A DNA stretch of 64,000 nt from assembly GCA_039025875.1 (NCBI GenBank), contig JBCCNK010000001.1, positions 9,147 through 73,146 on the forward strand, given 5' to 3'. Below, in pieces: positions 29,029 to 34,085 of the stretch (its first letter is position 1; every line of letters starts with the position of its first letter). Source of the DNA: Pseudomonadota bacterium (GTDB taxonomy: Bacteria > Pseudomonadota > Gammaproteobacteria > Pseudomonadales > Halieaceae). Position numbers and translations under genes: made by a program. The notes beneath the pieces were generated by a model that was given only the letters and a program-made list of their open reading frames with translations, ran no database searches and was not told where the DNA came from.

Positions 29029-30159
29029 TCAATACAACGTTCGCCGATATCGCAGCATGGCAATCTCCATGACCACGGCCGTGAACACAGACATCGCGAG
29101 CAGCGGCTCGCTGAGCTGCACGAAGCTCGCGTCCTAAAGCATCACACCGCGTACCACGCGCAGGAAGTGAGTGAGCGGCAGCACTTCACCAATGGTCTGC
29201 GCCCAGCCCGGCATGCCGCGAAACGGAAACATGAAACCCGACAGCAGCAGCGAGGGCAGAAAGAAGAAAAACGTGAGCTGCATGGCCTGCATCTGCGACT
29301 TGGCAATGGTCGAGAACGTGAAGCCCAGCGACAGGTTGGCGACAACAAAGACGGCAACGCCGAGCAGCAGCAGCCAGAGGGCGCCGACAAAGGGCACACC
29401 GAAGAGCACTTTCGCTGCGACAAGAATGACGGCCGTCTGCGCGCTGCACACGAGCACGTAAGGGAAGATCTTGCCGATCATCACCTCGCCGGGACGCGCG
29501 GGCATGGCGAGCAGGTTTTCCATCGTGCCGCGCTCGGCCTCGCGTGTCATGGCCATGCCCGTGATCATCACGAGCGTCATGGTCAGGATCATGCCCAGCA
29601 GCCCGGGCACGATGTTGTAGCTGGTCTTGCCCTCGGGGTTGTAGCGCGAGTGCACGACGAGATCGAACGGGGAAGGGGTACCTGCGATGTGGCTGACGTT
29701 GCCGCGAAGCTCATGCCGGAGGGCGCGGGCGAGAATCGTCTCGGCGCGGCCAACGGCGTCGGAGGTGGCGGCCGGGTCCGAGGCGTCGGTCTCGATGAGC
29801 ACCTGCGGTCGATAGGCACGCAGCAGTGCGCTCTTGAAGCCGCTCGGTATCGATACGACGAACACGACGTCGCCGCGGGCGAGCAGCTCGCTGCTCTCGC
29901 GCGGGTCGGCTGTCTGCAACACGAAGTCGTAGTAGCCCGACGTCTCGAGCGCGGTCACCAGCGTGCGCACGATGGGCGTCTGCTCCTCTACGAGCAAGGC
30001 CGAAGGCAGCCGCTTGGGGTCCAGGTTGATCGCGAAGCCGAACAGCACGAGCTGTATGATGGGCATGCCGAACATCATCGCGAACGTGAGCCGGTCGCGA
30101 CGCATCTGCACGAGCTCCTTCATGGCCACGGCCGTGATGCGTTGCGTAGATGCGTTCAT
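29029..30159 (-). pseudogene. ABC-2 type transporter permease with a premature stop
   Basis: KELVQMRRD, YNP, VPGL, REAERGTME, LLSGFMFP, PLTHFL. TAG at 29134 removes the last TM helix; the frame continues to TGA at 29029. Confidence 0.85.
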
Positions 30160-30570
30160 GCGTGCACCCGCGTGTCCTGGCCTGCGTCGGCCATCAGCGC
30201 GATGAAGGCGTCCTCGAGGCTCGAGCGCACTTCTCGCCAGTCGACGTTACTGGTCTGCGCCGCACCGAAGTAGGCGACATGCTCGAGCGCATCGTTGGTC
30301 TTGAGCTGCTCGGAGAGCTGCCGCACGCCGTAACCCTCACCGCGGAATGTGTGCAGGCCCGAGCGCGCGATGATGTCGGCGACGGTGCCTTCAGCCACCT
30401 TCTCGCCGTTGGCGAGGTAGACGATGCGGTCGCAACGCTCGGCCTCGTCCATGTAATGCGTGGAGACGAGCACGGTCATGCCCTCGAGCGAGAGCCGGTG
30501 GATCTCGTCCCAGAAGTCGCGCCGCGCCTGCGGGTCGACGCCGGCTGTGGGTTCGTCGAGCAGCAACAGC
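30156..30570 (-). pseudogene. ABC transporter ATPase, C-terminal fragment
   Basis: Begins at Walker B LLDEPTAGVDP; VSTHYMDEAERC. The 5' half is replaced by IS91-like sequence. Confidence 0.88.
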
Positions 30571-31240
30571 CAGTTCCATCACGTACCGCATAGCCGTCGG
30601 CCCACAGCAGGGACGCAAAGCCTTCATGATTCGCACCATTCGCCCGCTGGACAGGCCTGACCCTCGCCTGGAGCGGGTGGCCAGGGCCAATGGCTTTTCC
30701 CTGCATGCTGGGGTGAGCTGTGAGGGCAATCAGAAAGACAAGCGTGAGCGCCTGTGCCGGTACATTTCCCGCCCGGCCGTAGCCGTCCCCCGGCTTTCGC
30801 TTAGTTCCACAGGCAAGGTGGTTTACACCCAAAAGACACCGTACCGGGATGGGACTACGCAGGTGGCCTTCGAACCAGCGGATTTTATAGCGCGATTGGC
30901 GGCACTGGTGCCTAAGCCGAGGGTCAACCTCACCCGCTACCACGGCGTACTCGCGCCGAACCACCGCTGGCGTAGGCTGGTCACTCCAGCAAGGCGCGGG
31001 AAAGGCATCAAATCCACCTCCAACGCAGAAGTCCGCACACCCGCCGAGCGTCATACCGCTATGACCTGGGCTCAACGCCTAAAGCGCGTTTTCAACATCG
31101 ACATCGAGGTCTGCAGTCTTTATGGCGGAGCCGCCAGAGTCATCGCTTAATGAAATGGACCCATCCCGCTTCTCACACCGCTGCCAGCAAGCCACGATGG
31201 AAGTGTGTGAAACCATCGGGACGAATTAGGAGGGTCCGAT

Positions 31241-32266
31241 ATGAAGCATAATAAAACAGTCGTCCGCTTAGGCATGGACATCGGCAAGAACACCTTTCAT
31301 CTGGTTGGCGTTGATCAGTCCGACCTTCCCGCCGTCAAAAAGAAACTGCGGCGCCACCAAGTGTTGGCCTGGTTCGCTAACCTGCCAGCATGCCTGGTCG
31401 CGATGGAAGCCTGCGGTGGGAGTCACTATTGGGCACGCGAGATCGGTAAGCTGGGCCATGATGTCAGGCTCATCAGCCCGCAGTTCGTGAAGCCCTACGT
31501 GAAGGGAAACAAGAACGACTACAACGACGCCGAGGGCATCTGCGAGGCGGCGGGTCGAGCGAACATGCGCTTCGTGACCGTCAAGACGGTCGAGCAGCAG
31601 GACATCCAGGGATTACATCGGATCCGCCAATCGGTGGTGAAGCAGCGCACGGCGCTGGCGAACCAGATCCGCGGGCTCCTCGGCGAGTATGGGATTGTCG
31701 TGGGTATGGGTATCAGTCAAGTCCGTCGCCGGGTTCCGCAGGTCTTGGAAGACGGGGAAAACGGCCAGACGGATCGCTTTCGCGGATGGCTCGCTGAGCT
31801 TTGGAGGTGCTCCGTGAACTAGATGAACGCATCAAACAATACGACAAAGAGATCGAGCGGGAATTTTCGGCCAACGAAGCCTGTCGACGACTGGGTGCCA
31901 TTGAAGGCATAGGCCCGCAGATCGCTACGGCGGTGATTGCTTCCTATGGAGATGCCCGGCAGTTCCGAAACGGCCGGCAATTTGCGGCCAGTATCGGGCT
32001 GGTGCCGCGCCAACACACGACCGGCGATCGCGGTCCTTCTGGCGATCAGCAAGCGGGGCGATAAATACCTTCGCACGCTGCTTATCCATGGCGCACGAGC
32101 GGCGATTCGTTGGCTGGAGGGAAAAGACGACCGGCGCAGTCGGTGGCTGCGGTCATTGGTGGCGCGACAGGGAAAGAACAAAGCCGCAGTTGCGTTGGCC
32201 AACAAAAATGCGCGGATCATCTGGGCGCTGCTGACGCGCGGTGAGTACTACCAGCCAGCCGTGTAA
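31241..32266 (+). pseudogene. IS110/IS1111 DEDD transposase with two frameshifts
   Basis: LGMDIGK, AMEAC, KNDYNDAEGI, IEGIGP, GLVPRQHTTG, ISKRGDKYLRTLLIHGA, ALANKNARIIWA, spread over three frames (shifts near 31800 and 32030). Confidence 0.9.
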
Positions 32267-32556
32267 GGAGTGGCGTTACCGCTAAGTCGCGCTGCCGTTG
32301 TAACTGAATTCAAAAAACCGCTAATCAGGGAATGCCCATCATGAGGTTGCGAAGACACAGAAGCGATTGATGACAGGACAGGTCAGACCGTCGTCTTGAG
32401 AGCCTGATCGATACAGTGGCTCCTTTGAAGCCGATCGCATGTTGAGGTCAAGACGAGCGGAATTCATCAAGGCCAGCGACAGAACGTTCGCGCTAACAGG
32501 CCGGATATATGGGTGCAACCTGTTTCTTAGCTCAAACAAAACTGTGTCTTGCAAAA
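32267..32556 (+). ncRNA. Probable seekRNA/bridge-RNA-encoding non-coding region of the IS1111-type element
   Basis: ~290-bp non-coding right end with stems (TCGTCTTGA/TCAAGACGA, TTGATGA/TCATCAA) and short matches to the target flanks and the circle junction. RNA boundaries are not determined. Confidence 0.7.
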
Positions 32557-32994
32557 CGGGATGGGTCCATATACGTATCGAGGACGAGGACGTCATACCC
32601 GATAAAGCGGGGCAGGCCCTCGACCGGATCCTGGATCACCTGCGCCAGAAAGAACAGGAAGCACCGACTCGGCCATTGCTGGTGCCACCGACCAGAGCGC
32701 CGCCTGGGACAAGGTGAATCGGTGCGAAGCGTCGAGAGAGGGTGCCCTGGGGTACATTGCTGCTTTTCAACGGGAAGGACTCTGGCCCATAGCCAGCAAG
32801 GAAGCCATTGAAAACCGCATGGCGTGAGCGGTTATGCGCGCTCGTTCAGGATTGACCGGGTAGGAATAACATGCCCACCGGCGCATACTGGATTTGCGGG
32901 TCGACAGATGGAAACTTTGGCAGATCTGCAGTCCCAGTCGGCACAGTCAGCGAGGATGTCTACTTCCGAAAGGTTCTTTGTCTGTCCTATACCC

Positions 32995-33108
32995 CTCCGA
33001 CAGATAGAGCAGCGCGTAGATCTGGCCGACGGTCCGGTTGATGCCCCAGCGGCTGCCCATCTCGCCGAAGTGCAGGATGAAGCGTTGTTGCAGCGGCGTA
33101 ACGTCCAT
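32995..33108 (-). pseudogene. GbsR/MarR-family regulator, N-terminal fragment
   Basis: MDVTPLQQRFILHFGEMGSRWGINRTVGQIYALLYLSE, after which the similarity stops. Confidence 0.7.
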
Positions 33109-33590
33109 AGTGTCGAAACTTTCAGTGATTGTTGAAACGTCATAATTAGTGACCACGCCGCTGCGGCGGGGTTCTGCGTGGTGGCGCTGGTTGCCCAAGA
33201 CAGCGTCGTTCTTCGCTGAGCATAAGCGGGGGTGAAACGCGGGCTTTTCAACCACGGCGAACAACTCGCCGATGGCGACGGTGTGCTTATTGGGTAGACA
33301 CCACATGCCGTTCGCCCGCGTGCTCAAGGCGACCTGGAATTTGTCGCGCTGCGACGCCGTTGGTGTCATGGACGACCCCTTGTATCGCCGCATTGGCGAT
33401 ATCCACGCCGTTGTTCAAGCCTATTCATGCACCGGGTCAGGGGAAATGGCCGAACGCACCCCGGCGAGGGCCGTCACAATTATGCGGAGTCTGAAGAGTC
33501 TGAGTACCGGCGTCGGCGGTAGGCGCGTCCGGCCACGTGCTGCTGGCTTTGCTGCATCAGTTCACAAGGTGGGTTTGCGAGGTTGCATCT

Positions 33591-34085
33591 ATGACATCTG
33601 AAGAAACCGGTCTTTCTGCCCACGTCACGGCGGAGATCGAGCGCTGGAAACGTAAATTCCCTGAGGGACGCGAACAGTCGGCGGTCATCGCCGCATTGCA
33701 CGCCGCTCAGCATGACAATGGCGGCCACCTGACGACGCCGATCACGGACGCGATTGCGAGCTATCTCGACCTGCCGAAAATCCACGTCTATGAGGTCGCC
33801 AGCTTTTATTCGATGTTCGAGACACGGCCGGTCGCGCGGCACAACGTCGCGATCTGCACAAATATCTCGTGCATGCTGCGCGGCGCGGAGGACATCGTCG
33901 AGCACGCTGAACGGAAACTTGAAATCACACTGGGCGAGAGCACCGCTGATGGCCGCATCTACCTGAAGCGCGAAGAGGAGTGTCTCGCCGCGTGCTGCGG
34001 TGCGCCGATGATGATGGTCGATCACCGCTACTACGAAAACCTGACCACCGACCTGGTCGACGACATACTCGAGAGGCTGGATTGA
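33591..34085 (+). CDS. nuoE: NADH-quinone oxidoreductase subunit E (orphan copy)
   Basis: SAVIAAL, YEVASFYSMF, CTNISCMLRG, ECLAACCGAPMM. Confidence 0.92.
   Translation: MTSEETGLSAHVTAEIERWKRKFPEGREQSAVIAALHAAQHDNGGHLTTPITDAIASYLDLPKIHVYEVASFYSMFETRPVARHNVAICTNISCMLRGAEDIVEHAERKLEITLGESTADGRIYLKREEECLAACCGAPMMMVDHRYYENLTTDLVDDILERLD

Follow-up and report, generated by a model that had tools for sequence, protein, structure and literature searches.

The stretch of DNA analysed here, hereafter the window, comprises 64,000 nucleotides of contig JBCCNK010000001.1 from a Halieaceae bacterium (assembly GCA_039025875.1), with positions counted from its first letter. Positions 31148-32573 of its plus strand are occupied by an insertion sequence (IS) of the IS1111 type, 1,426 bp long, and this segment very probably represents a dead IS1111-group element with a two-loop bridge/seek RNA that is guided to the Ile-Ala|Cys-Ile-Glu/Asp codons of IS91-family transposase genes (a vertical bar marks the insertion point here and below). 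This reading is carried by the anatomy of the element, covariation within the predicted RNA fold, covariation of the guides with the flanks and with the element ends, repeated insertion at one codon junction, and an empty site recovered from public sequence data. An initial sequence-only reading had proposed a guide RNA aimed at an IS91/ISCR transposase gene, a proposal now supported by guide-flank covariation among relatives and by ten further copies at the same codon.

Target guides, flanks and the empty site

The element splits an IS91-family transposase gene into two parts. The left part (30575-31147, plus strand) is a 5'-truncated Y2 transposase remnant ending in ...CSLYGGAARVIA, which matches PF04986 (E=4e-21) and is 64% identical in amino acid sequence to residues 259-449 of ISVsa3 (ISCR2), its N-terminal half being gone; the right part (32574-32717, plus strand) encodes the transposase tail RIEDEDVIP...ILDHL... 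and a stop codon. Membership in the IS91 family is indicated by the Y2 (HUH-type) domain PF04986 and by the C-terminal C..CGG..[VI]IA-C-I-[ED] tail in the alignment with ISVsa3, a motif that has decayed in the window to CSLYGG, with R replacing C. The flanks of the element read GTCATCGCT | CGTATCGAG. In intact ISVsa3 the corresponding DNA is GTCATCGCC|TGCATTGAA (KVIA|CIE) or, in a longer reading, GTCATCGCC|TGCATTGAAGAC (KVIA449|C450IED), implying that the insertion falls precisely on the boundary of the Ala and Cys codons with no bases added. It places a TAA straight after the Ala codon, where the IS91 protein consequently ends.

Two short segments in the non-coding right end of the element correspond to these flanks. 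Guide 1, ATCGATACA (32407-32415, plus strand), is the reverse complement of TG plus TATCGAT and would pair with the top strand of the core and right flank, and guide 2, ATCGCATG (32434-32441, plus strand), reproduces the terminal 6 nt of the left flank and then the core TG and would pair with the bottom strand. Guide 1 covaries with the right flanks of related elements and guide 2 with their left flanks, the window copy of guide 2 matching 5/6 flank positions (ATCGCT). Among relatives with the same ends and other flanks, block 1 always equals the reverse complement of the right flank, with a conserved TG at the start, and block 2 always equals the final six left-flank bases with TG appended. 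For example, L037 has the flank CCCGAG|TGGCCAGGGG and the guides CCCCTGGCA / TCCAAGTG, the right flank TGCGCTGAT of L082 is accompanied by the guide ATCAGCGCA, and the unusual flank of L116, ATTGCC|TGCATTGAC, is matched perfectly by its guides. As is typical of seekRNAs, the two loop segments match opposite target strands, the top-strand match lies 5', and both change with the target.

All strings named in the sequence-only reading are present where it had located them, namely TCGATAC at 32408-32414, ATCGCATGT at 32434-32442, ATATATGG at 32505-32512, and the stem strands TCGTCTTGA (32391-32399) and TCAAGACGA (32448-32456). It had also spelled the target as ATCGCA-TG-TATCGA, encoding I-A-C-I-(D/E), and this agrees both with ISVsa3 (KVIA|CIE) and with uninterrupted alleles, ATCGCT|TGTATCGAG, detected in contigs of the public runs X2 and X3, which stem from two studies. 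The X2/X3 contigs join window position 31148 to 32620 via the letters GTATCGAGGACCAGG[A/G][C/T]GTCA, and the empty alleles thus read ATCGCT|TGTATCGAGGAC..., that is, IA|CIEDQDVIDRILDHL. In the probable source run, a loose contig end has CATCGCGT ahead of GTATCGAG. Position 32574 is C in the window (CGT, Arg) and T in relatives and in the empty alleles (TGT, Cys). Guide 1 predicts TGTATCGA, which is present in the empty-site alleles; the guide therefore predicted a TGT that the window copy has mutated to CGT, so TGTATCGA is the natural allele and the C at 32574 a later change in the interrupted copy.

Comparison with the empty alleles and ISVsa3 reveals no target duplication, as in other IS1111 elements, and leaves one T as the only base in common at the crossover. 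The alternative of a 2-nt TA core, present in duplicate at the two junctions, was rejected: the IS91 frame would then be longer by two bases, which are seen in neither ISVsa3 nor the empty alleles.

Predicted fold of the guide RNA

The predicted bridge/seek RNA extends over 32384-32520 (plus strand; ends not mapped), within the 3' non-coding region to which the sequence-only reading had assigned it, and consists of a target-binding stem-loop followed by a donor-binding one. The fold is the consensus of 22 related right ends aligned with MAFFT, and compensatory changes occur at 13/37 of its pairs. The target-binding stem-loop (32391-32456, plus strand) is formed by a closing stem (32391-32398 / 32449-32456) and an apical hairpin (32418-32421 / 32429-32432). 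Each of the 8/8 closing-stem pairs is changed on both sides in 1 to 11 sequences (at least 3 in seven pairs), a U-A pair of the apical hairpin becomes C-G in 4 sequences, and the donor stem-loop contains a covarying inner hairpin (32476-32479 / 32488-32491). The two guide blocks form the variable, unpaired sides of the internal loop between the closing stem and the apical hairpin. The concern that the flank matches might fall in paired stems is thereby answered, as all of them lie in unpaired loop sides and none in stems.

Recurrent insertion in IS91/ISCR genes and alternative explanations

Ten further copies of the element were found in IS91-family genes (L031, L032, L111, L112, L113, L114, L115, L116, L117, and L182), with transposases 78-89% identical to that of the window. 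All ten break the IS91 gene between the equivalents of ISVsa3 Ala449 and Cys450, as the sequence-only reading would have it for other copies: the left flank ends at residue 449 in every copy and the right flank, where present, begins at 450. Including the window, 11 copies share the break at 449|450 and a single orientation. The host gene of L113 is ~80% identical to ISVsa3. The motif I-A-C-I-(D/Q) is encoded by all eight guide pairs that can be read, which differ among themselves at 5/5 third-codon positions and at 1/10 others.

A chance likeness between short strings in the non-coding DNA and the flanks, a caution raised when only the window copy was in view, would be suggested by its matches of 7 nt and 7/9 nt with two mismatches beside the junction. 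It deserves almost no credence: guide-flank matches reach 525/754 in 58 non-redundant relatives, compared with 308 ± 14 after shuffling, with 0/10,000 shuffles attaining the observed value of this position-specific covariation, and the TGT predicted by the guide was then found in the empty-site alleles. Common descent offers another account, in which one ancient insertion into one IS91 copy was followed by joint divergence of element and flanks, so that the shared codon was simply inherited. The uniform orientation and junction would fit such an event, as would the apparently degraded state of several IS91 hosts (the window, L031, and L111). However, the IS91 flanks, though coding, are more diverged (58-79% pairwise identity) than the elements (69-92%, or 80-92% without L182), and five elements retain intact transposases, which together favour repeated insertion over the inheritance of a single event. 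Moreover, the guides follow flank-specific synonymous variants, with L116 matching perfectly at three variant positions, and a disrupted IS91 would be unable to spread alone. A single ancient insertion is accordingly considered very unlikely.

It is likewise highly improbable, and slightly more so, that the element merely reads a short generic motif or DNA structure that IS91 genes happen to possess, without any IS91 specialisation. Under that explanation, 11/11 readable-flank copies with, or implying, IACI-type guides would not be expected to lie in IS91 genes at 449|450, nor would guide variation be confined to synonymous positions, a pattern expected only for a protein-coding target pool. 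The points in its favour are an effective target of only ~13 bp and the preference of more distant relatives for palindromic repeat-like sites, CTRCAKGGA|TGYAGG(W)GGTAGAG. The latter site serves in many unrelated contigs as the insertion site of relatives with the left end TAATGGTATGG (e.g. L093, L124, L136, L143, and L147) and probably represents a repetitive extragenic palindromic (REP)-type repeat family.

Several observations weigh against an RNA-guided element specialised for IS91. Only one copy is present in the source genome, whose assembly is 58% complete and in 378 contigs. The guide-flank match of this copy is imperfect (12/15), and mismatches fall beside the crossover, at position -1 (flank T, guide A), which is the Ala wobble position and is also mismatched in L111 and L113, and at core base 1 (flank C, guide T); the last base of guide 1 is mismatched as well (T vs flank G), at a position often mismatched in relatives. 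The close relatives L033, L034, L035, L082, and L118 have other flanks, and L034 and L082, whose guide loops are on the contig, have other guides too, suggesting that IS91 targeting characterises a sub-lineage rather than the clade as a whole. IS91 homology ends a few codons past the right junction in L031 and L111. A scan of 30000-34000 against Rfam 15 gave no match at E<=1, with the qualification that Rfam may hold no IS1111 right-end model, and a simple scan of 31100-32650 found no sigma-70-like promoter in the integrated copy.

Some individual copies show local irregularities. The right-side IS91 tails in L031 (4335-4376) and L111 (2547-2588) read CIEG.. and CIEY.., suggesting deletions or rearrangements that start at the right end of the element. 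In L115 (2034-2073) the left flank reads ..CGGAAKVI-PKALATLAGQALA|, with the half-site CTTGCC ~39 nt beyond the normal KVI position, pointing to an unusual insertion at this place or to another event. A 402-aa gene call, P0004, combines PF01548, PF02371, and PF04986 and is probably a further element copy beside an IS91 gene that was read through by the gene caller.

Element ends and the donor loop

The boundaries are defined by ends common to the relatives and by the empty-site alleles, which join at 31148. The element is laid out as TAATGAA, the subterminal inverted repeat ATGGACCCATCCCG, the body, the subterminal inverted repeat CGGGATGGGTCCAT, and ATA. The left end (31148-31168, plus strand) thus comprises the 7-nt extension TAATGAA and the left repeat (31155-31168), and the right end (32549-32573, plus strand) comprises TTGCAA (32549-32554), the right repeat (32557-32570), and the 3-nt extension ATA. 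The two repeats are perfect over 14 bp, within the 7-17 bp range of IS1111 elements, which also have such short terminal extensions. In the 22-sequence alignment, five of the six bases of TTGCAA are invariant and the sixth is nearly so. Non-coding DNA accounts for 93 bp ahead of the transposase start and for 307 bp after its stop (32267-32573), and a long non-coding region downstream of the transposase gene is a further IS1111 character. These features, together with the domains PF01548 and PF02371, uphold the initial assignment of the element to the IS1111 type.

As expected of a bridge RNA, the second loop contains segments that match the ends of the element itself. On the 5' side of this donor loop, AATTCATC (32461-32468, plus strand) is complementary to the left-end ATGAA; left-end positions 3-7 covary with it, and it tracks the left-end variants ATGAA, ATGGT, ATGGG, ATGGA, and ATGTGAT. 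The 3' side, ATATATG (32505-32511, plus strand), consists of the terminal 5 nt of the right end and the core TG. The dinucleotide after GGATATA equals the first two right-flank bases (core TG, CG, or TA) in 78/85 relatives; among the elements with a CG target core and a guide other than the common TG, it has switched to CG in 11/11. Placement of ATATATGG in the donor loop had been anticipated by the sequence-only reading, which took it as complementary to the circle junction; the placement stands, whereas the strand assignment is best revised, since the covariation of the dinucleotide with the core favours top-strand identity with the right end ATATA plus core TG. Because ATATAT is palindromic, the two readings of ATATATGG, including that as the complement of CCATATAT, are indistinguishable in the window copy. 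The left end begins with TA where the donor guide has TG, a difference that G-T wobble could accommodate. In a more distant relative (L120, 3716-3915), TA replaces TG in the target loop (ACTTAC-TA) as well as in the donor loop (GGATATA-TA), and the right flank begins with AACCC, without TG, suggesting that the core or the exchange register differs there.

Transposase gene and genomic context

The DEDD transposase gene (31241-32266, plus strand) is a pseudogene with matches to PF01548 and PF02371 over three overlapping open reading frame (ORF) pieces (31241-31822, 31801-32064, and 31937-32266). The Pfam matches are PF01548 (DEDD_Tnp_IS110) at E=2e-16 and PF02371 at E=3e-12 and E=2e-4 on the shifted pieces. 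Alignment to five intact relatives reveals deletions of 1 bp after 31800 and of 2 bp after 32030, leaving ~77 codons out of frame. The intact relatives encode transposases of 342-357 aa, or 342-347 aa counted from the shared start, compared with the 330-350 aa expected of IS1111 transposases, and the diagnostic GL-P----S/TG motif is preserved in the frameshifted window gene as GLVPRQHTTG (ORF 31801-32064). The same frameshifted sequence occurs in contigs of two public runs, indicating that the frameshifts are not errors of a single assembly. With two frameshifts in the transposase and the first base of the right flank changed from T to C, the copy is dead and unable to move on its own. A terminator scan of 31100-32650 returned one minus-strand terminator-like site inside the transposase gene, no more than expected by chance. 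A DNA search of 301 same-order genomes and 72,556 plasmids recovered no close copy, the only similarity being distant and in the transposase (<=73%).

The surroundings of the element bear traces of other events. The IS91 tail contains an in-frame 24-nt insertion at ~32596-32620 (..VI-PDKAGQAL-DRILDHL) that is absent from the X2/X3 uninterrupted alleles and from ISVsa3. At 30156-30626, a minus-strand ABC transporter ATPase gene lacking its N-terminus (ORF 30156-30566) adjoins the IS91 remnant, whose start at 30575 corresponds to ISVsa3 residue 259; a single junction truncates both genes, suggesting an older rearrangement at this place. Elsewhere in the same genome (G000, contig C23, 2261-2596; L192), another match to Y2_Tnp, weak and interrupted by an internal TGA, may also be a decayed IS91-family remnant.

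Proposed mechanism

By analogy with ISEc11 and IS621, a scheme can be outlined in which RNA production, transposase binding, the circle promoter, and the exchange chemistry would operate as in those elements. Active relatives would excise as a circle, whose joined ends would form a TTGCAA-17 nt-TATAAT promoter, its -35 box lying at 32549-32554 and its -10 box across the junction, and this promoter would exist in the circle only. The DEDD transposase would bind the transcribed RNA, the donor loop (32461-32468 and 32505-32511) would pair with both element ends, and the target loop (32407-32415 and 32434-32441) would pair with opposite strands of a ~13-bp target, TCGCN-TG-YATYGA. The RNA would in this way bridge the circle junction and the target, and the transposase would exchange strands at the T of the TG core. 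The predicted target is the Ile-Ala|Cys-Ile-Glu/Asp codon run near the C-terminus of IS91/ISCR (Y2) transposases, so that the lineage would land between the Ala and Cys codons, always in one orientation, and the incoming TAA stop would end the IS91 protein.

Comparison with known RNA-guided elements

RNA-guided targeting by IS110/IS1111 elements has been known since 2024, and neither the mechanism nor the family is new. SeekRNAs have been described for the IS1111 elements ISEc11, ISXne4, ISPa11, ISKpn4, and ISPst6 (Siddiquee et al. 2024, PMC11187229). The present element resembles these in its DEDD transposase of ~340 aa, its subterminal inverted repeats, and its RNA-encoding 3' non-coding region, as well as in the order of the guide segments (the top-strand-complementary one 5' of the bottom-strand one), the overlap of the two matches at the insertion point, and a target of ~13 bp. 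Retargeting within its clade has occurred naturally through changes of loop bases only, comparable to the difference between ISEc11 and ISXne4. In contrast to those elements, which insert in REP repeats or attC sites, its target is a coding motif in the transposase gene of another IS.

Similarities to the bridge recombinases of the IS621/IS110 type (Durrant et al. 2024, PMC11208160; Hiraizumi et al. 2024, PMC11208158) include the two internal loops, one for the target and one for the joined ends, each with two guide segments that share the core dinucleotide. Unlike in IS621/IS110, however, the RNA lies in the right instead of the left end, the inverted repeats, at 14 bp, are long, and the core is TG in the target and TA at the left end, with only T shared at the crossover. 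As far as the summary in PMC11208160 extends, IS4321/IS5075 target the terminal repeats of the Tn21 family, and another IS1111 group targets attC (Partridge & Hall 2003; Post & Hall 2009). On that account, these are likewise IS1111 members homing to a conserved sequence on another mobile element, and the shared gain would be a harmless, multi-copy, horizontally mobile landing site. The sites in those cases are described as non-coding recombination sites, whereas the target here lies inside a transposase ORF and the protein is truncated.

On the target side stand the rolling-circle elements ISVsa3 (ISCR2)/IS91, in which KVIA|CIED is conserved as a protein motif and at the DNA level; among the plasmids searched, ISVsa3 itself was not found to be interrupted by this element. 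The literature searched and the supplements of two 2024 papers contained no report of an IS91, ISCR, or TGCATCGA-type target of IS110/IS1111. Apparent literature matches to 'ISCR' proved to be ISCro4, and string matches in the Durrant supplements were unrelated sequences. The IS91/ISCR transposase gene thus appears to be undescribed as an IS1111 target.

Biological significance

The new aspect of this system is that the target is a conserved coding motif in the transposase of another transposon family, with at least 11 diverged genes hit at the same codon junction. The guides also constitute a natural experiment: they differ almost only at third-codon positions, implying that the coding constraints of the target shape guide evolution. 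In addition, a comparative map of the four guide segments and the core has been obtained for this subfamily. As IS91/ISCR elements such as ISCR2 mobilise antibiotic-resistance genes, the natural guide set provides a practical starting point for studying interference between mobile elements.

The site preference observed here may reflect parasitism of rolling-circle transposons. In its strongest form, which is tentative and rather doubtful, the lineage would be a dedicated RNA-guided hyperparasite of IS91/ISCR rolling-circle transposons, damping their activity and hitch-hiking on it. If this were the case, guide evolution would be constrained by the codons of the host transposase, with only synonymous sites varying and following host alleles. 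IS91 would be truncated at Ala449, and the element would still reside in a unit open to mobilisation in trans by intact IS91 copies. Such elements could also naturally disrupt the clinically important gene-capture element ISCR2/ISVsa3, because the target there is within one or two mismatches of natural guides.

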